Shown here in pieces: positions 12,732 to 32,562 of a stretch of 32,562 nucleotides of DNA (positions are counted from its first letter, which is position 1; the number at the start of each line of letters is the position of its first letter). Source of the stretch: Alphaproteobacteria bacterium (GTDB taxonomy: Bacteria > Pseudomonadota > Alphaproteobacteria > Elsterales > Elsteraceae); NCBI GenBank assembly GCA_013297545.1, contig JAAFHH010000001.1:1-32562 (forward strand), in the 5' to 3' direction. The notes under the pieces are model-generated. The model was not told the DNA's origin and did not search any database. It saw only the letters and a list, made by a program, of their open reading frames with translations. The translations under genes were made by a program, and so were the position numbers.

Positions 12732-13877
12732 TCAGAACACCAGCTGATACCGCGTCCCGCGGCCAGCACCGAGGCGTTGGATCAAGCCAGCATCAACCAG
12801 GGAGCTGAGCGCGTTCTGGACGGTGCGACGCACCAAGCCAGTATCTGCCATCAGGTCGGCGGGCGTCAGGCGGCGCTCCGGCGCTGCGCGGAAGCAGGCC
12901 AGCACCCGGGTGGCACTTTCTGAGAGCCGCTGCAGAGCAGCATAGCGGGCGCGCAGCACGCCAACATCGCCGAGCGCCAAGTCCGTCATCTTCAGGAAAA
13001 ACCAGGCGAGCGGCTCAAGCTGGTAGGCACGCGGATCGGCGCGAAACAGGCCGTTCGAAGCCTGCTGCAGGGTGGTGTAGTAGATGGATCGATGTCGTTC
13101 GATCTGCCGGTCGATCGAGATGAACCGCACCACGCGGCGCAAGGCCAGATCATCACTGTGCATCAGCGCCAATAGAAACAGCGCGCGGCCGAGCCGGCCA
13201 TTGCCATCCTGGAAGGGGTGGATCGCAAGGAAGCGGAATACAAACTCGCTTGCCACCAGCAGCGGCCAGGGATGGGCTCGGATCGTTTCGTTGTACCAGA
13301 GCACCAGATCGCGCATGGCGGTTTCGGTTTGTGGACCTGGCGGAGTCGGGTCGAGGACAATCCGCTGCTCGCCCGTCTCGTGGTTCACCGACACGACCTG
13401 GTTTGGGCTCGCCTTGTAGCTGCCAGCGTAGCGCTCAGCGGCAGGGTAGTGCCGCAGCAGCTCCCGGTGCAGGCCGCGAATGATCGCCTCGGTCAGCGGA
13501 AACATCTCATCGGCCTGGACGTAGACGAGCGACAACAACTCGCGGCAGCCAACCACTTCCTCGATGCTGCGCTCGCGGTCTTTTGACAGCTTGTCGAGGA
13601 TCGCAGTCTTGGCTGCATCGAACGCCGAGGGGTGGTCATCGGCAGACAACGTGGTGTCCACCCACTCGATCTCGGCATCGGTAAGCACCGCGTTTTCGAT
13701 ACGCGTTGAAGCGCCGACGGTGCTGATCAGTGCCCAGCGCTGCAGCCAGGCGCGCTCGTCCCGGGCGATGCCGTCGATCTCACGCGCCAGGCGATCGAGC
13801 TCGGATTGGGTTTTCTTGAGCGCCAGTTCGAGTTTGAGACTGGGCTGGAAGGACAGGGCGGCTCGGACATCGAACAT
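12732..13877 (-). CDS. Fic-family protein (class II: N-terminal inhibitory motif, Fic core, C-terminal winged-helix)
   Basis: The start is taken at Met60 of ORF 12732..14054 (MFDVRAALSF..). Fic motif HPFQDGNGRLGR at 13185-13220. Inhibitory-helix motif S-T-R-I-E-N ((S/T)xxxE(G/N)) at 13692-13709. The C-terminal ..LTPADLMADTGLVRRTVQNALSSLVDAGLI.. looks like a wHTH. Confidence 0.85.
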   Translation of the reverse strand: MFDVRAALSFQPSLKLELALKKTQSELDRLAREIDGIARDERAWLQRWALISTVGASTRIENAVLTDAEIEWVDTTLSADDHPSAFDAAKTAILDKLSKDRERSIEEVVGCRELLSLVYVQADEMFPLTEAIIRGLHRELLRHYPAAERYAGSYKASPNQVVSVNHETGEQRIVLDPTPPGPQTETAMRDLVLWYNETIRAHPWPLLVASEFVFRFLAIHPFQDGNGRLGRALFLLALMHSDDLALRRVVRFISIDRQIERHRSIYYTTLQQASNGLFRADPRAYQLEPLAWFFLKMTDLALGDVGVLRARYAALQRLSESATRVLACFRAAPERRLTPADLMADTGLVRRTVQNALSSLVDAGLIQRLGAGRGTRYQLVF

Positions 13878-14452
13878 CGCACCATCATGCCGAATAACGC
13901 ACCACCTAGCAATAGTGCGATCTAGTGCGATAGTGGCATCAGATACACTATGCCCTGATCCGTATTGAAGATCTCTGGCTTGCCGTATCGGGCCAAGGCC
14001 TCCTCCAGCGCCTCGATGCAGAAGTCGGCTTCCATGGTGTTCGACAGTTTCCATGACAGTACCTTCCTGGTCGCCCAGTCCATCACCGCCACGAGGTACA
14101 GAAAACCTCGCCGCATCGGAATGTAGGTGATATCAGCGCACCAGACATGATTGGGGCGGGTGATCGCTAAGTCTTTGAGCAGATACTTGTATTTGCGGTG
14201 TTCCGGGTGCGGCACTGTCGTTCGAGGCCGCTGATAGATCGGAGCGAGCCCGATCTTTGCCATCAGCCGCCGTATCCGTTTGCGCCCGACCATATGACCT
14301 TGCCGGCGCAGATGCCTCGCCATTTGCCGGGAGCCGTACCATGGCGTCGCCATGAACTGCTCGTCGATCAGACGCATCAGTTCCAGGTTCAAGGCACTCT
14401 CCGGACACGGCTTCGAATACAGACCCGACCGGCTGATCCCAACCAGGCGGCA

Positions 14453-14492
14453 TGGCGACGAGTGGGCAGTCGCCCACTCGCGCCGGGGCGAC
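14453..14492. repeat. TGGCGAC + 20-nt hairpin GAGTGGGC-AGTC-GCCCACTC (14460-14479) + GCGCCGG + GGCGAC; extra segment inside IS3 orfB
   Basis: Read directly from the sequence. GGCGAC is directly repeated 33 nt apart (14454-14459 and 14487-14492). The flanks and spacing are the same as in the module at 912-944. Confidence 0.75.
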
Positions 14493-14545
14493 AACCGACA
14501 GCCGTGGGTGATCCGGCTCAACCATCAACCGCCTTCGAGCTAGGC

Positions 14546-14830
14546 TCATCGACCGAAGGCTTTGGCCAAAAAATCCCGTTCCACAACGAGCTGGCCGATC
14601 TTGGCGTGCAGTTTCTCTACGTCAGCCTCGCGGCCGACCTCAGCCGCTTCGGCCTTCCCGGAAAACACCGACGCCATGCCGTCGACGGCCTGCTTGCGCC
14701 ACGTGGAGATCATGGTCATGTGCACACCGTGCTTGGTCGCCAACTGCGCCAACGTCAGCTCGCCCTTCAAAGCGTCCAAGGCCACCTTCGCCTTGAATTC
14801 CGCCGAATACCGCTTCCTCGTGTTCGCCAT
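14546..14830 (-). CDS. IS3-family transposase OrfA (HTH, IS3/IS911 type)
   Basis: MANTRKRYSAEFKAKVALDALKGELTLAQLATKHGVHMTMISTWRKQ.. Typical OrfA with a leucine-zipper-like tail. Confidence 0.85.
   Translation of the reverse strand: MANTRKRYSAEFKAKVALDALKGELTLAQLATKHGVHMTMISTWRKQAVDGMASVFSGKAEAAEVGREADVEKLHAKIGQLVVERDFLAKAFGR
14567..14573 (-). promoter_or_regulatory. Programmed -1 ribosomal frameshift heptamer T TTT TTG at the OrfA/OrfB junction
   Basis: The minus strand reads GAT TTT TTG in the OrfA zero frame (X XXY YYZ). The -1 frame continues into OrfB-like sequence. Confidence 0.6.
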
Positions 14831-15118
14831 CGATATCGTCCTCTCGGTGGACCGATACCAGCTTAACCCCCCTGTCCGAAATCCGGGGTCCACCTCACCT
14901 GATGCCGGACCCCGAGGGCTGGGCGTCGCTGCTCGGCACCATGGCGGGCAGCGAGGCGGCCAGTGGGCTGGTCCGCCAGGGGGCGTCGGCCTTCCTGACC
15001 AACCTGACCAACAGCCCGCGCGAAGCCGGCTCGGTCCTGTCCACGGCGCAGCGCCATACCGAGTTCCTGCGCGGCCCGGCGATAGATACCGCCCTGTCCG
15101 GCTCTGACTTCCGGATGT

Positions 15119-23313: not shown

Positions 23314-23517
23314 AGCCTGATGTACTGAGGTGTGCTTTGTCTCAGAGAGCAGTTGGGCCTCACCCGCAGATACACTATGACTAATTCTGTATCAGCCGAA
23401 CGCCGGTACAGGCCCTGAATCCCAGGAAATCCGGCTGAAAGCGCCCTGCGCCGTGGTGGAACGTGGCGCGATGTGTTACAAAACTCACGGAAAATCTTTC
23501 AACGCGGATCGTGGCCG

Positions 23518-23835
23518 ATGCAGCTGTCCCTGTTCCCCGATCTGCCCACCCCCGCCCCGCGATCCCCTGGTGATCGGCCGGCGCCAGTCCCGGACCTGGT
23601 GCGCGCCGGCATCCTGCTCACCCGCATCCGGCCGGAGCAGAACGAGTGGCGGTTCTATCGCCTCGAGCTCTGGCCCGACCTCTTCGGCCAGGTCTGCCTC
23701 GTGCGCGAGTGGGGGCGCATCGGCCGACCAGGTCGCCTGCGCCTTGACCCATTTTCCGACAGTACGCGCGCGCGCAGTGCGCGCGATCGGCTCGCCGGCG
23801 CCAAGCGTCGGCGTGGCTATCAGGAGGTTGCGTGA
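23518..23835 (+). CDS. Small WGR-domain protein
   Basis: ..NEWRFYRLELWPDLFGQVCLVREWGRIGRPGRLRLDPF..RRGY.. shows the WGR signature. The start could instead be the upstream Met at 23473. The stop overlaps the next gene's GTG (GTGA). Confidence 0.75.
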   Translation: MQLSLFPDLPTPAPRSPGDRPAPVPDLVRAGILLTRIRPEQNEWRFYRLELWPDLFGQVCLVREWGRIGRPGRLRLDPFSDSTRARSARDRLAGAKRRRGYQEVA

Positions 23836-24440
23836 AGCCGCCCTCCCCCTCCCCCGCCGGCATGAGCCTGCATGCGGCCGATGGTTCTCGAAAATACCTC
23901 ACGGCCGCGGAGCGTTCGGACTTCCTCAAGGCGGCCGAGCGGGCCGATCGGCAAGTCCGCACCCTCTGCATGACCCTCACCTACTCCGGGTGTCGGATCT
24001 CGGAGGCGTTGGCGCTGACCGCTGATCGGGTGGACCTGGTGGCCGGCGTGCTGGTGTTTGAGAGCTTGAAGAAGCGGCGCAGCGGTGTGTGGCGAGCCGT
24101 GCCGGTGCCGCCTGCCCTGCTCGAGGCCCTCGACCTGGTGCATGGGGTGCGGGAGGCGCAAGGGCGGCGTGATCGTGGGAAGGCCCTGGTGCTGTGGCCC
24201 TGGAGCCGGATGACCGCTTGGCGGCGTGTGGCAGAGGTTATGGCCGAAGCGCGGCTCGAGGGCACGCAGGCGAGCCCCAAGGGGCTGCGACATGGGTTTG
24301 GTGTGGCGGCGGTGACCGCTGGTATCCCCCTGAACCTGGTGCAGAAGTGGTTGGGCCACGCCCAGCTCTCGACGACGGCGATTTACGCTGACGCTGTGGG
24401 GGCGGAGGAGCAGAACATTGCAGCGCGCATGTGGGGGTAG
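23832..24440 (+). CDS. Tyrosine recombinase/integrase, catalytic domain only (about 200 aa)
   Basis: ..LTYSGCRISEALAL.. (catalytic Arg box), ..GLRHGFG.. (H/R box), ..LGHAQLSTTAIYA.. (His and Tyr nucleophile). No N-terminal core-binding or arm-binding domain. CAGGAGG lies 5 nt upstream of the GTG. Confidence 0.8.
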   Translation: MKPPSPSPAGMSLHAADGSRKYLTAAERSDFLKAAERADRQVRTLCMTLTYSGCRISEALALTADRVDLVAGVLVFESLKKRRSGVWRAVPVPPALLEALDLVHGVREAQGRRDRGKALVLWPWSRMTAWRRVAEVMAEARLEGTQASPKGLRHGFGVAAVTAGIPLNLVQKWLGHAQLSTTAIYADAVGAEEQNIAARMWG

Positions 24441-24610: not shown

Positions 24611-25864
24611 ATGCGAAAAACATTGAGCCAAAGCGTCGCCGTGTCTCTGTGGCTGCTGGCTAGCTCGGTCGGTTTAGCCGCCGCAGATGATTTTCAGCGG
24701 GCTCAGAATGCTTTCGAGCGTGAGAACTTCGCCGCGGCCGCTGCATTGTATCGAAGTGTCGCGGAGCAGGGTGACGCTGACGCCCAATTCAATATGGGCC
24801 AAATGTACCATCAAGGCAGAGGCGTACTACAGAATGATGGTGAGGCTGTCGCCTGGTACCGGCGCGCAGCTTTACAGGGCCTCGATGTTGCCCAAACCAA
24901 TCTAGGCTGGATGTATGAAAATGGACGAGGAGTGCCGCAGAACTACACCGAGGCGGCTGTTTGGTACCGACGCGCAGCTTTGCAAGGTCATGCAGTTGCG
25001 CAATTCGGTCTTGGCTTGGCTTATCTCAATGGCCAGGGTGTAGAGCAGGATCCGATCGAAGCAGCTGATTGGTTTAGCCGTGCTGCTCACCGGGGGGTCG
25101 GGATGGCTCAATATAATCTAGGTGTACTTTATTTTGAGGGACATGGAGTAGTACAAGATTATAACCTTGCTGTAGTCTGGTATCTGCGTGCTGCAGATCA
25201 AGGCATTGCTATCGCCCAGTATAATCTGGGTGTTATGTATAGCACTGGTCAAGGTGTTCCAACGGATAAATCCGTGGCCGCCGCCTGGTATCAGCGCGCT
25301 GCAGAACAAGATTTCACTTCTGCCCAGAAAAACTTAGCTATAATGTACTTCGATGGAGATGGCGTATCGCAGAACTATGTCCAAGCGGCCGCTTGGTATC
25401 GGCGTGCCGCTGAGCAGGGCCATCCTCACGCCCAAGCTGCTCTGGGCATGATGTACTTTGAGGGTCATGGGGTGCCGCAGGACTATGCGCGGGCGCTTGA
25501 CTGGTACCGTTTGGCCGCCGACCAAGGTGACCCACAGGCGCAAAATCTCCTTGCAGTGATGTACCATCGTGGGTACGGCGTCACCCAGGATTATGACGAG
25601 GCAGTTGCTTGGTACCAACGCGCGGCTGATCAAGGGGAACCTCAAGCTCAAAACAGTCTTGGTTTCAGATATCAGAATGGGGAGGGCGTAACGCGGGATT
25701 TGGTGAAAGCGTACAAGTGGTTCTCGCTTTCTGCTGCCACACCAAACCCTACAATTAAGGTGATTGCAGAGAGAAATATAGACATGATTGCAGTCATGAT
25801 GAATAGCACACAGATTATAGAGGCGCAGCGCCTAGCACATGAGTGGCGTCCGAGCCGTCCGTAA
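24611..25864 (+). CDS. Secreted Sel1-like repeat (SLR/TPR-like) protein
   Basis: Signal peptide MRKTLSQSVAVSLWLLASSVGLAAA, then 9 full plus 1 partial 36-aa units of the pattern A..WYRRAA.QG...AQ..LG.MY..G.GV.QD. GGAGG lies upstream of the ATG. Confidence 0.9.
   Translation: MRKTLSQSVAVSLWLLASSVGLAAADDFQRAQNAFERENFAAAAALYRSVAEQGDADAQFNMGQMYHQGRGVLQNDGEAVAWYRRAALQGLDVAQTNLGWMYENGRGVPQNYTEAAVWYRRAALQGHAVAQFGLGLAYLNGQGVEQDPIEAADWFSRAAHRGVGMAQYNLGVLYFEGHGVVQDYNLAVVWYLRAADQGIAIAQYNLGVMYSTGQGVPTDKSVAAAWYQRAAEQDFTSAQKNLAIMYFDGDGVSQNYVQAAAWYRRAAEQGHPHAQAALGMMYFEGHGVPQDYARALDWYRLAADQGDPQAQNLLAVMYHRGYGVTQDYDEAVAWYQRAADQGEPQAQNSLGFRYQNGEGVTRDLVKAYKWFSLSAATPNPTIKVIAERNIDMIAVMMNSTQIIEAQRLAHEWRPSRP
24731..25708 (+). 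repeat. 108-nt (36-codon) tandem periodicity from the Sel1 repeats
   Basis: Recurrent ..GCNTGGTA(C/T)CGNCGNGCNGC.. / ..CA(G/A)GANTA.. blocks every 108 nt. The units are diverged at the DNA level. Confidence 0.8.
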
Positions 25865-25973
25865 CTTGCTGAAAACGCCACGCATGAGTGTCAGTTCGGC
25901 GCCAACCAGGCCCACTCATCGCCGTCCAGTGCCCTCAAGGCACGCCAGTCCACCGGTACTTCGAGGTGTCCAA

Positions 25974-28900
25974 ATGACTGATCTGGCCGCTGCGCTAAGA
26001 ACTCTCTGTAGCCGTACACTTGCTGGGTGGCTGGCCAATCCAGATCTCGTGGAGAAGGATGCTCGCGAGGAGCAGAATCTCCTAAGCACCGGCTATTACG
26101 ACAGGCAGATTTTCGAGCTCGTCCAGAATGCAGCAGATGCGGCTCTAAGATCCTCCTCGGCAACGATCGAACTCCGGCTCACGGCGACACACCTGTATGC
26201 TTCGAATACCGGAGAACCGCTGCAGGAGGCAGGCCTGAGGGCCCTTATCCTCGGTGGTGTCTCACCGAAGGGCGGTGAGGAGGTCGGGCGTTTTGGATTG
26301 GGGTTCCGCAGCCTGCGGAGGCTTGGCGGCGTCGTCGACATGTTCTCAGCCGGTATCGGCTTTCGGTTTGACCCGCCCTGGTGCGAAGAGGAAGGGCGCA
26401 AGGCGGCACAGCTACCGGACGGCGCCGATGCACCAGGCATGCGCTTAGCAAAGCCGCTCGATCCGGATCAGGAGCGTGATGGGGATCCCGTTCTTCGCGA
26501 GATGCTCGCGTGGGCCGACACCGTCATTCGCGCGGAGATCGCCGACGAGAACGTGCAGTTGGCAATGCTGAAGGAGCTCGACGCATTCCCTGCGGAGTTT
26601 CTCCTCTTCCCCAAGGCTGACCTGACGGTAAGCCTGCGTCGACCAGATGGCATCGCGCGAAAGCTACGTCGCAGTCGGCAAGGCGCGTTGATGGTGCTTC
26701 ACGATGGGGAAACGGAGCAACCATGGCATCTATTCGTACAGCGGTTCCCAGTTACCGATGCCGCGGCGCAGCTCGATGCTGGGAAGCTCCAAGCGCGGGA
26801 TGAAGTCACCATCTCCTGGGCTGTGCCGGCAGCTGGGGGAGACCGGCGAGCAGGTCAGTTTTGGAATGCCTTCCCGACACGGACGCCGAGCGTCGTACCT
26901 GGCATCCTTGATGCGCGCTGGAAACTCAACAGCGATCGCTCCTCCCTCACCGGTGACGCGTGGAATCCAGCACTCATGCGCAGTGCGGCAAAGCTGATCG
27001 CCGAAAGCCTTCCGCGCTTGGCGACACAGGATGACCCCGGGCGCCCCATCGACGCGCTGCCGAGACAACTCGACCGAAAGGACGACCCCGCTGCGCCGCT
27101 GCATGATGCAGTTTGGGCAGAGGCAAAACGCGTAGCGTTTATTGCTGCCGGGGGTGGTGCGTTAAAGTTGCCTTCTGACTTATTGCGACCGCCGACTGAC
27201 GATTCTGACCTTCAGGCGACCTGGTGCGCCATCGCCACGGAAGAAGTTAGAGATCGGCTGGTCCACCATACCTGCCTCAGCACGCGGGACCGCGCGTCAA
27301 GGCTAAAACACCTCACTATTGTATTAAATAGGGGTGATGGGGACGGTGAGGAAGACGCCCAGGAAAGCGAAAATGATGATAATGCCGAGTCCAAAGCCCG
27401 CCTGTCGCAGAGCAGCGCAAGTGATTGGCTGACTCAGGTTGCCAACGCTGACCCAGTCATTGGCCGCGATGTAATTCTGCTTGCTGGCCGTCTGGCGGCT
27501 GTTGCGTCGCTCGCGCCTTACATGCTCCGCCATCTTGCGATTGTTCCGACCCAGGATGGTCGCCTCGCCCCCCCGGGCAAGGTCGTCTTTCCGGATAGCG
27601 ATATGCTCGCCGCCGGGCTCCTCGTTGTGCACACCGATCTCGCCGGTGACGAGGCTGTGCGCGACGTTCTGACCAAGGTGTTCCAGGTCCGAGCCATGGA
27701 CGACGAGGCGTGGCTGCGAGCCTTGGACATCGCTTGGCCTCAATGGGGAAATCCATCGAGCTACGAGGAAGCATGGGATCTGCTTCGCTCCACGCCGGAT
27801 GCGGTTCGGCTCCGCTTCATGAAGGAGAAGCGGAGCAGGCTGCGCTTCAAGACCTGCGGCGGTCGTTGGAATGCGGTGGATGACGTTCTGCTTGTCGGTC
27901 GAATTGTTAGCGAGGCAGACGCCCCTGCGCATGCAGATATCGTCGTTGACGCGGACTTCGCGCGCGTCAACGGCTCCCTGCTGGAGGCGATTGGCGTCGA
28001 GGATGTTCCGCCCGATAGATGGATCACCGAGGTTCAACCAGCGTGTCTGAGTGAGCCGCAAAATGCTGCGACCAGAGAGTATCGGCAGAGGAAAGATGCT
28101 TGGCGCGCGCGCAGAGATACCTTGGGTTATGTCGGGACCGTTGAGCACCTGTCCGGCATCGGCCTTGTCGCGCGACTAAAGGCTGCCAGCCGCGCGCGTC
28201 TGACAAAAACGCTTCTGTCTCGCTTTTCGCAGAGGGCACCAACGAACACCCAGGTTGGGGGCCGCGGAGGTCAAGCGACGCAGGACCGCTATCCGCCTAT
28301 CCAGGTCCCGAATCCATCGGCTTGGTTACTGTGGAAGCACGGGACGGTGCAGATCGGCACGCATCTCGTTTCTCTAGCCGCATGCTCGGAGGTGAGGCGG
28401 AACCTCGAACCACAGGAGGTCGAGGCTCTCGCCAAATGGCTTCCTGACGACAGTGCTCTTAACGCGTGCTGGCCAAGTGGTTGGCCGAGACTTACAGAGC
28501 CGACAGACCCTGTCTGGAAAGCGCTGCTTTCCAGCCGCCACACACGGGACCATGCCGGATTGCTGCCAATCTGGGCGGCGGCGGCACGCCGCGGCTTTGT
28601 GCCGACCAAAGTACCTAGCTCCGACAGCGCCGGATACGCGCTACTCTCGGATTTCCTGGTGGCTGTCGATCCCTCTGACTTCGAACTTGCTATCAGGGCC
28701 CAGAGACCGTGCGCACTTCTTGATCGCGCTACTGCGGCCGTATGGATCAATCACGGCGCCGGCGATATTGAGCAGGAGATCGTGACCCGTGCTATTGGCC
28801 CTGCCGAGAGCCCAATGCGAGCCGTCGACTACATCCCAGGACTCGGTGAATTCCTGAACGGTGATGGGCCGTCCATTTGCTTGGTAGAAAGCGTCGAGCG

Positions 28901-30674
28901 GGTGCTGGGCACGGCAGCTACACTCGCCGCACTGCTCGTAGACGATGAGCAGATCTCAGTAAGTCAAGCTTGGCTGAGAACCACGTCGAGCACGGCCGTC
29001 TTGCGACCATTGCTGGAAGCGATCGGGACAGTTTCGAAGTTCAACCAGAGTATCGATGCCGTTTTCGCTGCTCTTGACATCAGCGAGATCAAGCGGCGGC
29101 GTGCCCAAGTCCGCGCCGAACCGGATCTGGCATCGCGACTTCTGCGGGCGGTAGGTCACGCCGAGATTCTCAAGGACTGCCTTCCAGCAGCGGCAAGTCG
29201 TGTGCTGACCCCTGATACGTCGAACTACACGCTTGCGACCTTATGTCTGGATATTCATGGCCCAGCTGCATTGCGCGAAGTGCAAGAGGCTTTGGAGCAG
29301 GAGGGGCTGCGGCCACCTCGGCGCTGGGGGGCAGACGAGGCGCAGCAATTTGTTCTGGCTCTGGGTTTTCCGCTCGCTTACGCCGGTGCCGCCAACCCGC
29401 GTCTGCCATCAGAGATCCAGGTGGCTGGCCCTCGCCCTCTCCCACCTCTCCATCCCTATCAGGAAGCCGCCTTGGCGGAACTGCGCGGCCTGATCGATTC
29501 CGGTGCAGGCCGACGGCGGTCAATCCTTAGCCTGCCTACCGGTGCAGGTAAGACGAGGGTCGCTGCTGAAGCAGCGGTCCGATCACTGCTCCGAGGCGAA
29601 ACTGGTCGCCCCTTCGTACTTTGGGTCGCGCAAACCGAGGAACTTGCCGAACAAGCTGTCGAAGCGTTTCGGCACGTCTGGGCTGTCGAAGGGGTGGAAG
29701 AAACAGAGCTCCGGATTATTCTCTTCTGGGGCGGGCAAAGGACGCCCCCGGAAGCCGATGCCACTCAGCCAACTGTGGTGGTGGCGCTGGTGCAGACGCT
29801 TGATGGCAGGATGGGGCTAGAAGATGCCGCCTGGCTTGCAAACGCCGGCATGGTCATCATCGATGAGAGCCATCACGCCATCGCTCCCACGTACACCAGC
29901 CTGCTCAACCGCGTCGGTGTCGCAACGGGAGCTCGGCAGCAGGCTCGCACGAAGACTGAAAAACGAGAGCCGGTACTTCTGGGACTAAGCGCGACACCAT
30001 TCCGCAGTAGTGGTGAGGAAGAGTCGCGCCGTCTAGCTGCACGTTTTGAAGCTAGCGTCGTACCAAAAGATCAGGAGGGCTTGTACTCGAGGCTCCGAGA
30101 GGGTGGGATCCTGTCCCGCGTCGCTATGGAGCCGCTGCGGATCGAGCAGGTGTTTCAGCTCACAGAGGATGAGCGTGCCGACTTCCGGCAATTCGGCGAG
30201 TTGCCAGAAAGTGCTCTCTCCCGTCTATCGGCTCTCGCTCCGCGCAATGACGCTATCCTTTCAGCGGTGGAGTCGGCGAAAGAGGAATCGATTCTTCTTT
30301 TTGCGAACAACGTCGATCACTCGACGGAACTGGCTGCACGTCTCAGTCTGCGCGGCATCCGCACCCGCGTCGTCAGCGGTCAGACTGACCGATCCGCACG
30401 GAGAGACGCAGTGGCCGCGTTCAAGCGACGGGAAGTAAGGGTTGTTTGTAACGCTGTGGTTTTTGCTACCGGCTTTGATGCGCCGGGCGTTGAGATGGTC
30501 TTGATCGCACGTCCTGTCTTTTCTCCGGTGCGATTCATGCAGATGGTGGGTCGCGGACTGCGTGGCCCCCGGAACGGCGGCACTGAGCGATGCAGAGTCG
30601 TGACTGTTCAGGACAACATTGAAGGATATGCCGATCGCGATCCGTTGGCTTGGTGGCGCAAATACTACGAATAG
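25974..30674 (+). CDS. Giant fusion protein (~1566 aa): N-terminal sacsin-like GHKL (Bergerat-fold) ATPase module, ~800-aa uncharacterised middle, C-terminal SF2 DExH helicase (ResIII/DEAD-like plus helicase-C)
   Basis: One uninterrupted ORF (25839..30674). The start is preferred at ATG 25974 (MTDLAAAL..) because GAGG lies 6-9 nt upstream and it does not overlap the Sel1 gene. Motifs are listed under the two domain features below. Confidence 0.85.
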   Translation: MTDLAAALRTLCSRTLAGWLANPDLVEKDAREEQNLLSTGYYDRQIFELVQNAADAALRSSSATIELRLTATHLYASNTGEPLQEAGLRALILGGVSPKGGEEVGRFGLGFRSLRRLGGVVDMFSAGIGFRFDPPWCEEEGRKAAQLPDGADAPGMRLAKPLDPDQERDGDPVLREMLAWADTVIRAEIADENVQLAMLKELDAFPAEFLLFPKADLTVSLRRPDGIARKLRRSRQGALMVLHDGETEQPWHLFVQRFPVTDAAAQLDAGKLQARDEVTISWAVPAAGGDRRAGQFWNAFPTRTPSVVPGILDARWKLNSDRSSLTGDAWNPALMRSAAKLIAESLPRLATQDDPGRPIDALPRQLDRKDDPAAPLHDAVWAEAKRVAFIAAGGGALKLPSDLLRPPTDDSDLQATWCAIATEEVRDRLVHHTCLSTRDRASRLKHLTIVLNRGDGDGEEDAQESENDDNAESKARLSQSSASDWLTQVANADPVIGRDVILLAGRLAAVASLAPYMLRHLAIVPTQDGRLAPPGKVVFPDSDMLAAGLLVVHTDLAGDEAVRDVLTKVFQVRAMDDEAWLRALDIAWPQWGNPSSYEEAWDLLRSTPDAVRLRFMKEKRSRLRFKTCGGRWNAVDDVLLVGRIVSEADAPAHADIVVDADFARVNGSLLEAIGVEDVPPDRWITEVQPACLSEPQNAATREYRQRKDAWRARRDTLGYVGTVEHLSGIGLVARLKAASRARLTKTLLSRFSQRAPTNTQVGGRGGQATQDRYPPIQVPNPSAWLLWKHGTVQIGTHLVSLAACSEVRRNLEPQEVEALAKWLPDDSALNACWPSGWPRLTEPTDPVWKALLSSRHTRDHAGLLPIWAAAARRGFVPTKVPSSDSAGYALLSDFLVAVDPSDFELAIRAQRPCALLDRATAAVWINHGAGDIEQEIVTRAIGPAESPMRAVDYIPGLGEFLNGDGPSICLVESVERVLGTAATLAALLVDDEQISVSQAWLRTTSSTAVLRPLLEAIGTVSKFNQSIDAVFAALDISEIKRRRAQVRAEPDLASRLLRAVGHAEILKDCLPAAASRVLTPDTSNYTLATLCLDIHGPAALREVQEALEQEGLRPPRRWGADEAQQFVLALGFPLAYAGAANPRLPSEIQVAGPRPLPPLHPYQEAALAELRGLIDSGAGRRRSILSLPTGAGKTRVAAEAAVRSLLRGETGRPFVLWVAQTEELAEQAVEAFRHVWAVEGVEETELRIILFWGGQRTPPEADATQPTVVVALVQTLDGRMGLEDAAWLANAGMVIIDESHHAIAPTYTSLLNRVGVATGARQQARTKTEKREPVLLGLSATPFRSSGEEESRRLAARFEASVVPKDQEGLYSRLREGGILSRVAMEPLRIEQVFQLTEDERADFRQFGELPESALSRLSALAPRNDAILSAVESAKEESILLFANNVDHSTELAARLSLRGIRTRVVSGQTDRSARRDAVAAFKRREVRVVCNAVVFATGFDAPGVEMVLIARPVFSPVRFMQMVGRGLRGPRNGGTERCRVVTVQDNIEGYADRDPLAWWRKYYE
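26091..27014 (+). other. Sacsin-like GHKL ATPase module of the giant protein
   Basis: N-box ELVQNAADA (26115-26141; ExxxNAxDA), ..LYASNTGEPL.., GRFGLGF (26286-26306), then ..FWNAFPTRTPSVVPGILDARWKLNSDRSSL..WNPALM... The order and spacing match sacsin/SRR-type HATPase regions as I recall them (ELxQNADDA .. GxFGxGF .. FP.. ..R..L ..WN..L). Confidence 0.65.
29448..30671 (+). other. SF2 helicase module of the giant protein
   Basis: LHPYQEAAL (Q/Ia-like), Walker A PTGAGKT (29535-29555), DESH (29862-29873), SATP (29988-29999), ..LLFANNVDHSTELA.., ..ATGFDAPGVE.., motif VI QMVGRGLRG (30540-30566). Confidence 0.9.
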
Positions 30675-30750
30675 GCGCCGCCAAGTTTGTGTAAGCGTCC
30701 GGTCAGCCCCGTGTTGCGGGGGATCGAGTGTCGGCCTGAGATGAGGCCGA

Positions 30751-30773
30751 CTCCTTCTGGAGTCCAGAAGGAG
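30751..30773 (+). promoter_or_regulatory. Perfect 10-bp stem / 3-nt loop (CTCCTTCTGG-AGT-CCAGAAGGAG) that sequesters the tnpA Shine-Dalgarno sequence
   Basis: Read directly from the sequence. The 3' arm contains AAGGAG (30768-30773), just upstream of the tnpA start (TTG 30778 or ATG 30784). Confidence 0.6.
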
Positions 30774-30777
30774 AATA

Positions 30778-31209
30778 TTGGACATGTCGGTCGAGGTGCT
30801 GGGGCCCGCCGAGCGTCGGCGTCGGTGGAGTGAAGCGAACAAGGCTGCCCTCGTGGCCGCGACTGATCAGTTCGGCGTCACCGCGGTCGCGCGCCAGCAC
30901 CGGGTTTCGACGAGCCTGCTCTACAATTGGCGCGCTGCGCGGCGTGCTGCCGCTGAGCTGGGTGTCCCTGGGTTGGCTGGCGAGCCGCCGATGTTTGTGC
31001 CGGTGCGGGTGGCGCCGCAAGCTGCTGATGCCAGATCAAGGCAACCACGACGCCCCCGTACCGTGGCGCGCATGGGGAAAGGCCAGGCATCGCCGGAGGC
31101 AGACGTGATCGAAATTGTTCTGCCTGATGGCGTCGCGCTGCGTATCGGCGGTGATGTCGCCGTCGAGCGCGTGGCTGCAGTGCTGGCCATGCTGCGCACG
31201 CAGCCGTGA
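30778..31209 (+). CDS. tnpA: IS66-family accessory protein TnpA (HTH)
   Basis: ..ERRRRWSEANKAALVAATDQFGVTAVARQHRVSTSLLYNWR.. The start is TTG 30778 or ATG 30784. Confidence 0.8.
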   Translation: MDMSVEVLGPAERRRRWSEANKAALVAATDQFGVTAVARQHRVSTSLLYNWRAARRAAAELGVPGLAGEPPMFVPVRVAPQAADARSRQPRRPRTVARMGKGQASPEADVIEIVLPDGVALRIGGDVAVERVAAVLAMLRTQP

Positions 31210-31559
31210 TCGCCTTCGCCCCCGGCACACGGGTGTTCCTCGCCTGTCAGCCGGTCGATCTGCGCAACGGGTTCGATGGTCTGTCGGCACTGGTCGCAAC
31301 CCGGCTGGCTGCCGATCCGTTTGGTGGTCAGATGTTCGTCTTCCGCGGCAAGCGCGGTGATCGCCTGAAGGTGCTGTACTGGGACGGCACCGGCCTGGTG
31401 CTGCTGGCCAAGCGCTTGGAGCAGGGCCGCTTCGTTTGGCCCGTGATCACAGCCGGCGGCGTTGCCTTGTCAGCCGCCCAGTTGGCGTTGCTGCTGGAAG
31501 GCATGGACTGGCGCCGCATCATCCTGCCAGCGCCGCCGCAGCGTCCTATCGCATCGTGA
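31206..31559 (+). CDS. tnpB: IS66-family Orf2 protein TnpB
   Basis: ..VFLACQPVDLRNGFDGLSALV...GQMFVFRGKRGDRLKVLYWDGTGLVLLAKRLEQGRFVWP.. is highly characteristic. The GTG start overlaps the tnpA stop. Confidence 0.9.
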   Translation: MIAFAPGTRVFLACQPVDLRNGFDGLSALVATRLAADPFGGQMFVFRGKRGDRLKVLYWDGTGLVLLAKRLEQGRFVWPVITAGGVALSAAQLALLLEGMDWRRIILPAPPQRPIAS

Positions 31560-31631
31560 TAAGCTGCTGTTTTTTCACGGAATTCTGGCGATTGTACGCG
31601 ACGGCCCCAGCGCATTTCGCTATCATAGGCC

Positions 31632-32270
31632 ATGTCGCTCGCGTTCGCAGACGTGCCCTCAGATCCGGCCGCATTGCGTGCCTTCGCCGCCGCCTGTCAG
31701 GCGGAATTGCAGGCCGCAGCCGTCGCCGTGCAGCGCAATACCCTCGAGATCGAGCGGCTGAAACTGCAGCTCGCCAAGCTGCGACGGATGGCGTTCGGCG
31801 CCTCCTCCGAACGGCTCAGCGGCGAAATCCGGCAACTCGAACTGCACCTCGAGGAACTTGAGGCGGAGCCAGCACCACCAGGTGCCGATGATCAGGCAGA
31901 CGATGGCGTGGCCGCAGAGGACGCTACCGAGCCAGCGCCGACGCGCCAGCAGCCGAAGCGGCGCCCATTGCCGGATCACCTGCCGCGCGAGGTCCTGATC
32001 CACCAGCCCGTGCTCGCAACCGACGGCACCTGCGGCTGTGGGCGCGGACGCTTCTCCGCTCTCGGCGAGGATGTCGTCGAGGTGCTGGAGTATGTCCCCG
32101 GCCAGTTCCGGGTCGTGCGGCACACAAGGCCGAAGTACGCCTGTACGGCCTGCGATATTATCGTTCAGGCACCCGCGGTTGCACTGCCGATCCCGCGCGG
32201 CCGGGCCGGGCCAGCACTGCTCGCCCATGTGCTGGTGTCGAAGTATGCCGATCACCTGCCGCTTTATCGT
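31632..32270 (+). pseudogene. tnpC: IS66-family transposase TnpC, N-terminal ~213 aa only (cut by the IS256 insertion)
   Basis: A leucine-zipper region ..LEIERLKLQLAKLRRMAFGASSE.., a zinc-finger-like C.C..C..C, and ..LLAHVLVSKYADHLPLYR. It is then replaced by the IS256 terminal sequence at 32271. Confidence 0.85.
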
Positions 32271-32562
32271 GGTCACGTCCCAGGACGTGGTGTAGGAGCA
32301 GGACGGGTGGTGTAGGTCCCGACAGGCCTGATCCTGGTGCTCATGCGGCCGCTGCGGGCAGCGCGAGGTGGAGATCATCGCTGAGCGGCGCCATGGTTTC
32401 CAGGGTCATGTAGCGGGCACGCTGGACGGCCCATTCATCGTTCTGCTCGAGCAGGATAGCGCCAACCAAGCGGCGGATCGCAGCCTCGTTCGGGAAGATG
32501 CCAACAACATCGGTGCGCCGCTTGATCTCGCCGTTGAGGCGTTCGAGCGGGTTGGTTGAGTG
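32271..32562 (-). mobile_element. IS256-family insertion sequence, copy B (right-end 292 nt; continues beyond the window)
   Basis: The reverse complement of 32271-32562 aligns with 1171-1480 of copy A, with several substitutions and the 18-nt indel. The terminal ~110 nt are near-identical. Confidence 0.85.
32341..32562 (-). CDS. IS256-family transposase, 3' end (partial at the window edge)
   Basis: The minus-strand translation ends ..[70 protein letters not shown] with stop TGA (complement of 32341-32343). Confidence 0.8.

Follow-up and report, generated by a model that had tools for sequence, protein, structure and literature searches.

Among the described systems closest to the gene analyzed here, Tiamat is a single-gene system with a PD-(D/E)XK nuclease (bioRxiv 10.1101/2024.10.26.620412) and has been listed with an unknown mechanism (PMC12926258); the text of the Millman 2022 preprint does not mention it. 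In addition, GHKL ATPases linked to superfamily II (SF2) helicases in operons resembling restriction-modification (R-M) systems were predicted by Iyer, Abhiman and Aravind in 2008 (PMC2292703), and in SLFN-pAgo-GHKL, an antiphage protein made of one polypeptide, oligomerisation is driven by the ATP binding of a fused GHKL module (bioRxiv 10.64898/2026.05.29.728809). The gene in question occupies positions 25974..30674 on the plus strand of a 32,562-nucleotide stretch of DNA (the window) from an alphaproteobacterium of the Elsteraceae (GenBank assembly GCA_013297545.1, contig JAAFHH010000001.1), and it is one intact gene of three modules: a sacsin-type GHKL head, a long variable middle and a C-terminal SF2 helicase. 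With moderate confidence we infer that its product is a self-contained protein, horizontally mobile, that acts against phages or plasmids, because its relatives have defence-island neighbours, it moves as a single gene, its head and operon relatives are homologous to conflict systems, its middle is variable, and the literature offers precedents.

The mechanical list of open reading frames (ORFs) gives 25839-30674 (+), 1611 amino acids counted from the first ATG. The start at 25974 (MTDLAAAL), adopted in the initial annotation, is the right one, because the 45 extra N-terminal residues of the longer ORF run into the end of the Sel1 gene that lies upstream, all full-length homologues share this start, and DNA identity to the closest relative sets in 5 nucleotides before this ATG; a 1566-residue relative with 93% identity at 100% coverage (P0001) shares the start. 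The whole gene, encoding 1,566 amino acids plus stop, is delimited as a single-gene unit by the ORF listing, by full-length homologues with lengths of 1,547-1,730 residues and by DNA identity to a relative (L080) that is confined to the ORF. All motifs quoted in the initial annotation were found at the places given there and are invariant in alignments of 25 and 61 homologues, the two alignments in which invariance was judged, and both profile and structure searches showed the fusion of a GHKL head to an SF2 helicase in one polypeptide to be real. The absence of a nuclease motif was likewise borne out: neither Pfam (full protein and residues 1-1160), PADLOC and NCBIfam nor PDB sequence and profile searches and fold search detected a nuclease, a methylase or another effector domain, and Pfam gave no matches to UBL, SIRPT repeats, DnaJ or HEPN.

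Module 1 (residues 1-400; 25974..27173, plus strand, as are all features of the gene) is a sacsin/Hsp90-type GHKL ATPase-like head with a second domain resembling a transducer or middle domain, as indicated by NCBIfam, PADLOC, PDB-profile and AlphaFold/Foldseek analyses. The NCBIfam model P_loop_sacsin (NF047352) matched residues 43-118 with 58.3 bits against a cutoff of 50, and a profile built from 19 N-termini retrieved sacsin SR1 as the top PDB match (5v47, E 1.8e-6), followed by the N-domains of Hsp82 and TRAP1. An AlphaFold model of residues 1-410 (pLDDT 88, pTM 0.86) gave 94 Foldseek matches at E<=1e-3, including GRP94, the 40-kDa fragment of PMS2/MutL and TopoVI-B, and it aligned with the N and M domains of Hsp90 over ~416 columns (8eob, E 3.7e-6) and with sacsin SR1 (5v46 and 5v44, E about 1e-5). 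A GHKL domain together with an S5/transducer-like domain is therefore present, since ~300-420 columns aligned with the PMS2 N-terminal domain and Hsp90 N+M. Profile and structure searches thus both favour a GHKL fold at the N-terminus, a point on which the proposal had been made to depend beforehand.

The motifs of the head are highly conserved. GHKL motif I, the N-box ELVQNAADA, lies at residues 48-56 (26115..26141) with E48, N52 and D55 invariant, and the motif II position N78-T-G80 (26205..26213), located by alignments to sacsin, Hsp82 and TmtA, is also invariant in the family. Asn78 stands where Hsp90 and MutL have the adenine-contacting Asp; the same Asn occurs in sacsin and in TmtA. The lid S97-x-K99 and motif III, G105-R-F-G-L-G-F111 (GRFGLGF), together span residues 97-111 (26262..26306), are invariant and align with GQFGVGF of Hsp82, and T183 never varies in either alignment. 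In the second domain, the WKLNSDR loop (residues 316-322; 26919..26939), which follows a strand in the model, keeps W316, K317, N319, D321 and R322 invariant; either K317 or R322 might serve the transducer as its phosphate sensor, and the Lys position is not conserved as Lys in TmtA.

Module 3 (residues ~1091-1566; 29244..30674) is a complete SF2 helicase/translocase of the RadD/Res type with an N-terminal extension of ~60 residues (GLxPPxRW...GFP), as seen from Pfam, PDB and stand-alone homologues and from a naturally divided gene. Pfam places ResIII/DEAD at residues 1159-1344 and Helicase_C at 1427-1530, and the invariant motifs comprise motif I (Walker A) PTGAGKT at residues 1188-1194 (29535..29555), motif II DESHH at 1297-1301 (29862..29876), SATP at 1339-1342 (29988..29999) and motif VI QMVGRGLRG at 1523-1531 (30540..30566). 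PDB searches by sequence and by profile gave RadD, Hef, SauUSI and XPB as the nearest solved structures. The module boundary was set at about residue 1090 because stand-alone helicase homologues begin there and because, in one metagenomic contig (L084:2963-7106), the family gene is divided between a 1,087-residue ORF of head and middle and an overlapping ORF that starts exactly at the helicase N-extension (MRGALEAAGLQPPFRW...), an arrangement that reflects either a natural version in two chains or a frameshift.

Module 2 (residues ~401-1090; 27174..29243) is a family-specific, variable alpha/beta scaffold, characterized by AlphaFold, Foldseek, a HMMER scan, identity and the ratio of nonsynonymous to synonymous substitution rates (dN/dS). 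AlphaFold predicted a mixed alpha/beta array with confidence (pLDDT 90, pTM 0.71), and Foldseek found nothing below E 0.3 for this model among 350,542 PDB chains and BFVD, so that the folds of the middle may be new, being matchless in the libraries searched. A HMMER scan with residues 401-1150 over 1.84 billion representative proteins returned only 199 matches at E<=1e-3; ~70 of the 150 listed were proteins of 1.45-1.83 thousand residues, nearly all aligned at about 400-1150, and most of the others listed look like fragments. Hence the middle is private to the family. It is also the least conserved part of the protein, with a mean pairwise identity of 0.34-0.35 where the head has 0.55 and the helicase core 0.62, and in comparison with the 93%-identical relative its dN/dS was 0.75 at residues 401-800 versus ~0.2 at both ends of the protein. 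Within it, residues 801-900 (28374-28673) are only 71% identical to the same relative, with a dS of 0.58 compared with ~0.03-0.17 elsewhere in the gene, which points to a probable recombination (mosaic) patch. Among the residues conserved in the middle, W, G, P and L predominate and no constellation of acidic residues or His is seen, which suggests that these positions are structural rather than catalytic. The variability of the middle would be in keeping with a recognition module engaged in an arms race, which we propose it to be.

The initial annotation recognized no named defence system in this architecture. For the protein as a whole this holds, as no model in PADLOC v2.0.0 covers it, whereas the implied unrelatedness does not, because the head is homologous to TmtA of Tiamat and the first ~800 residues are homologous to a protein in a Mza-like operon. 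The PADLOC TmtA model (PDLC03964) matched residues 3-397 with a best E of 1e-37, covering profile positions 8-406 of 1,538 (26%), and hhalign against bona fide TmtA gave a probability of 99% and E 4e-18 over columns 11-406, with nothing beyond column 406. For comparison, the TmtA of an Agrobacterium plasmid reached 932 bits across positions 6-1142, and Pfam places NOV_C/DUF3883 at its C-terminus; in the window protein Pfam did not find this PD-(D/E)xK domain but matched ResIII, DEAD and Helicase_C. The two proteins have in common a homologous sacsin-type GHKL head of ~400 residues, with ELVQNAADA and ANTG motifs in both, and a giant single polypeptide of ~1,400-1,600 residues with a long middle, and TmtA too is encoded by a gene that stands alone, both in islands and on plasmids. 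However, their middles are not detectably homologous, and the output domain is a nuclease in TmtA and an SF2 helicase in the window family. Because the homology stops at column 406 and the C-terminal domains differ, Tiamat and the window family share a head and a plan (head, long middle, C-terminal output), with a different middle and a different output.

The second theme, GHKL proteins of the MORC/paraMORC type in operons with SF2 helicases, was met among the relatives of module 3. Stand-alone relatives of this module, with 30-34% identity including the N-extension, sit in operons of GHKL, helicase and PLD genes on two alphaproteobacterial plasmids, Mesorhizobium pOM4 and Rhodobacteraceae pSC52_2; each three-gene operon (L083:5629-9976 and L082:3489-8408) encodes a MzaB-like GHKL ATPase, a module-3-related SF2 helicase and a PLD/DrmC-like nuclease. 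PADLOC gave these proteins only partial matches to models of other systems (MzaB, PbeA, DrmC), and the operons are GHKL, SF2 helicase and nuclease restriction-like systems of the predicted kind (PMC2292703). Like them, the window protein joins a GHKL-plus-transducer module to a Rad25/Res-type SF2 helicase. Unlike them, it carries both activities in one chain and a head of the sacsin rather than the MzaB/MORC clade, the MzaB-like GHKL proteins of the PLD operons showing only motif-level similarity to the window head; it has no nuclease or methylase within the protein, none conserved nearby and no conserved operon partner. As these operons match the predicted systems with another GHKL clade, the window family may be described as a fused, nuclease-less, sacsin-headed variant of the GHKL-helicase theme. 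The Mza system (MzaA-E; Gao et al. 2020) is related at a distance only: the window protein gave no PADLOC match to it, and the homology, spanning the head and half of the middle (the first ~800 residues), is to a protein in an operon with Dcm and MzaB/C/D-like genes.

More distant comparisons concern the separate modules. Eukaryotic sacsin SR1 and Hsp90 N+M provide the best PDB profile match and are among the best structural matches of the head, with the N-box, GxFGxGF and, in sacsin, Asn for the adenine-binding Asp, but identity is 12-16%, UBL, DnaJ, HEPN and the Hsp90 C-terminal dimerisation domain are absent, and a helicase is fused instead. RadD (YejH) and the Hef/XPB-type SF2 helicases are the closest solved cores and share all motifs, whereas the window protein lacks the RadD-specific C-terminal domain, has an N-terminus longer by ~1,100 residues and is encoded by an island gene rather than a core gene. 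Other PADLOC helicase models gave partial, core-only matches (mREase_IV, 3.8e-14; PbeA, 1.7e-13; DpdF, 8e-6; HamB, 5e-3), and neither a full-length model match to, nor conserved partner genes of, DISARM, Druantia, Hachiman, Dpd, Pbe or the type I and type IV restriction helicases were found. SLFN-pAgo-GHKL also places a fused GHKL ATPase beside sensor and effector in one polypeptide; however, its Argonaute sensor and Schlafen RNase effector are unrelated to the window protein, and the likeness is a functional analogy with no homology claimed. No full-length model or name for the family exists in PADLOC v2.0.0 (2023), a 2025 copy of Pfam, NCBIfam release 20 (June 2026) or the source annotations, and the literature full text, covered in part so that prior naming is possible, yielded no description of a sacsin-type GHKL-helicase fusion.

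The family is rare, patchy and widespread across phyla. A word-indexed search found 748 proteins at E<=1e-5, of which the best 120 are nearly all of 1,450-1,730 residues with >95% coverage and 35-58% identity, and the source annotations of the relatives read only ‘DEAD/DEAH box helicase’ or ‘superfamily II helicase’. With two peptide patterns alone, 169 relatives were detected among 185,579 species genomes (~0.1% of species representatives), which is a lower bound for the number of species; at least 8 phyla are represented, and the full-length architecture is kept in at least 120 listed proteins. The taxa include Alpha-, Beta-, Gamma- and Deltaproteobacteria, Verrucomicrobiota, Planctomycetota, Chloroflexota, Gemmatimonadota, Spirochaetota, Latescibacterota and Actinomycetota. 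The closest relative, L080, has 94.9% DNA identity over 25971-30670, up to the stop codon, and nothing outside is common to the two loci; since the identity is confined to the ORF, what is transferred is the bare gene. Searches of Escherichia coli genomes gave no match at >=85% DNA identity to a homologue from a Klebsiella metagenome-assembled genome, and none of the giant neighbour proteins tested as paralogues of TmtA or of the window protein proved to be one.

The neighbourhoods of homologues were surveyed by clustering all ORFs within 10 kb on either side of the gene in 78 loci, 59 of which have at least 8 kb of flank. Recurrent annotated defence clusters, namely PDC-S68, DrmA/DrmB, BREX or type I R-M genes, lie within 10 kb in at least 27 of the 78 loci (27 of the 59 with the longer flank), so that this check of defence-island context favours a defence role; we judge such neighbourhoods to be far above the level of housekeeping genes, a qualitative judgement made without a matched control set. 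DrmA/DrmB with UvrD-like and NERD-UvrD genes, sometimes with a WYL regulator, were seen in about 9-11 loci, and BREX PglX/PglZ/BrxL on an element bearing TraG/TraH in 4-5 loci. At two loci (L006 and L023) the giant gene sits between type I hsdM and hsdS, a position typical of embedded defence genes, and in the former PDC-S68 is inserted there too. In addition, PADLOC applied to 97 further immediate neighbours gave matches that include GajB-like UvrD (4), mad3 of MADS (3), AriA of PARIS (3), HEC-01A/B (2) and type I S subunits (2).

Several observations weigh against a defence function. Fifty-one of the 78 loci are without recurrent annotated defence clusters, singleton neighbours not having been exhaustively annotated, and in the window itself no further defence gene accompanies the giant gene, just mobile-element genes and a transporter. 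No full-length member was found among 72,556 PLSDB plasmids, which gave partial matches only, and no family match was found among 50,697 phage records. The dN/dS above 1 that was obtained for residues 601-800 comes from few substitutions in one sequence pair. As to the head, Asn in place of Asp in motif II runs through the whole sacsin/TmtA clade, and ATP binding by sacsin SR1 itself is disputed; because of these two points the head may bind nucleotide weakly, may bind something else or may be a pseudo-ATPase. Finally, neither a nuclease nor another classical effector is present, and a motor alone does not readily account for immunity.

GHKL heads of MutL, MORC, Hsp90 and topoisomerases dimerise on ATP binding, and their transducer senses the gamma-phosphate. 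By analogy with MutL, MORC and Hsp90, the head and transducer-like domain of the window protein could act as an ATP-driven dimerisation or clamping switch. The variable middle would recognize a feature of the invader, either a DNA structure or a protein, and recognition would permit ATP-driven closure of two heads, which in turn would load or release the SF2 motor. The motor might then translocate on or unwind invader DNA or replication intermediates, blocking replication, while any destruction of DNA would fall to host nucleases or to a neighbouring helicase-nuclease. These specific steps of switch, recognition and motor output are proposed tentatively, and are on the whole doubtful. A bolder version, which we regard as quite unlikely, is a nuclease-free immune motor: the chaperone-like head and the fast-evolving middle would take a phage protein or a replication structure as their ‘client’, ATP-dependent closure would license the translocase, and this motor by itself would strip or unwind DNA and thereby abort the replication of phages or plasmids.

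The alternative that survives best, although unlikely, is that the protein is one component of a multi-gene system with its nuclease in trans, either PDC-S68 or a partner lost or displaced by the IS66 element that begins 17 nucleotides past the stop codon. PDC-S68, a PADLOC candidate of ~1,250 residues with a RecD2/Pif1-like SF1B core, adjoins the giant gene at 12 of the 78 loci (L006, L012, L014, L025, L034, L040, L056, L058, L061, L063, L065 and L067) and again in L084, often 2-50 nucleotides away or with a 4-nucleotide overlap, and the stand-alone relatives of the helicase module are always beside a PLD nuclease and a GHKL gene. However, 66 of the 78 loci are without PDC-S68, its order and orientation relative to the giant gene vary, and a search of it for a nuclease domain found the RecD2/Pif1-like core only; the adjacency may reflect functional cooperation or a shared hotspot. 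No partner gene is conserved across the 78 loci, the commonest neighbour cluster reaching 12, and the 95%-identical copy has only the ORF in common with the window. That an effector is encoded beyond the insertion, one of the options raised in the initial annotation, is unlikely, since nowhere in the family is a downstream partner conserved.

It is improbable that the protein is an accessory RadD-like helicase of DNA repair, recombination or replication restart, carried as mobile-element cargo and not immune in function. Among solved and curated helicases RadD comes closest (6jde, E 1e-28 with a profile; NCBIfam RadD, NF053632, 87.6 bits over the helicase core only), and MutL-type GHKL proteins cooperate with helicases in repair (PMC2292703), but the RadD score is far under the cutoff of 720 bits and thus no equivalog-level match. 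Moreover, a family present in so small a fraction of species representatives and scattered over many phyla, embedded in R-M, BREX and DISARM-like loci, with a head homologous to the Tiamat protein and a fast-evolving middle, does not have the appearance of a repair factor. Very improbable, in turn, is that the protein serves a mobile element, in its establishment, in the exclusion of rival elements or in counter-defence, rather than the host. The recombinase and insertion sequences (ISs) beside the gene in the window, the TraG/TraH element in sphingomonads and the transfer of the gene by itself would agree with such a role, whereas the plasmid and phage records gave no full-length plasmid member and no phage match, and the loci are for the most part chromosomal islands in which classical defence genes also occur; this role overlaps with anti-plasmid defence and is hard to separate from it. 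A two-gene system with the upstream Sel1-repeat protein is close to refuted, for although the two genes are co-directional, ~110 nucleotides apart and both of lower G+C than the flanks, the Sel1 gene is found in none of the 78 loci nor on the contig of the 93%-identical copy, its G+C is 0.54 against 0.61 for the giant gene, and its signal-peptide-like N-terminus suggests export.

If the protein is indeed an anti-phage or anti-plasmid system, it would be a widespread single-gene addition to those described (at least 169 species and 8 phyla), and its two ATP-driven modules without a nuclease would raise the question of how a helicase motor alone halts an invader. It would also offer a tractable bacterial model of the sacsin-type GHKL head, the biochemistry of which is unsettled in the human disease protein and the role of which in Tiamat is unknown. 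Should the nuclease-free motor prove true, it would represent a new effector logic for single-protein defence and a second bacterial lineage besides Tiamat for the descent of the sacsin module of the human ataxia protein from immune machinery. Defence censuses miss the family because its members are annotated only as helicases and no PADLOC v2.0.0 model covers them. It is a well-defined, widespread and experimentally tractable candidate of unusual, nuclease-free design and with a structurally novel middle, yet one of many unvalidated defence-island candidates.

The immediate surroundings of the gene in the window had been described as typical of defence cargo, and the features named are real: G+C is lower in the giant gene (0.608) than in the left flank (0.648), a recombinase lies upstream, IS66 and IS256 sequences adjoin the gene and a Fic gene is present. 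However, the Sel1 gene, the recombinase and the ISs are confined to the window, and none is conserved beside homologues. The Sel1-repeat gene (24611..25864, +; Pfam Sel1), a neighbour only, encodes 417 residues with 9 repeats and has the lowest G+C in the window (0.537); its product gave partial NCBIfam matches to MerG, AlgK and ExoR-type repeat proteins, and the gene appears to be a separate acquisition.

Upstream of it, positions 23473..24440 (+) hold a small ORF with a WGR-like motif (WRFYRLE...REWGRIG), spotted by eye only in direct reading of the sequence, which overlaps by GTGA a tyrosine recombinase of 202 residues that consists of the catalytic domain only (Pfam Phage_integrase at 23832-24440). 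The region was also considered as a frameshifted integrase, which was rejected in favour of two overlapping genes, the small ORF and the short recombinase; together they are probably a small mobile-element module. Downstream, the IS66 element (30691..32562, +) comprises a GTAAGCG end, tnpA, tnpB and a tnpC truncated at about 32320, where a minus-strand transposase of the IS256 type interrupts it. No tRNA gene was found in the window, and a scan of it for promoters and terminators remained at background level. The Fic gene (12732-14893) lies upstream of the giant gene, at a distance of ~12 kb and adjacent to a fragment of an IS3-type transposase, and encodes a Fic-domain protein with a C-terminal winged-helix helix-turn-helix domain (Fic-HTH). 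Sugar-acid and peptide-transport genes separate it from the giant gene.

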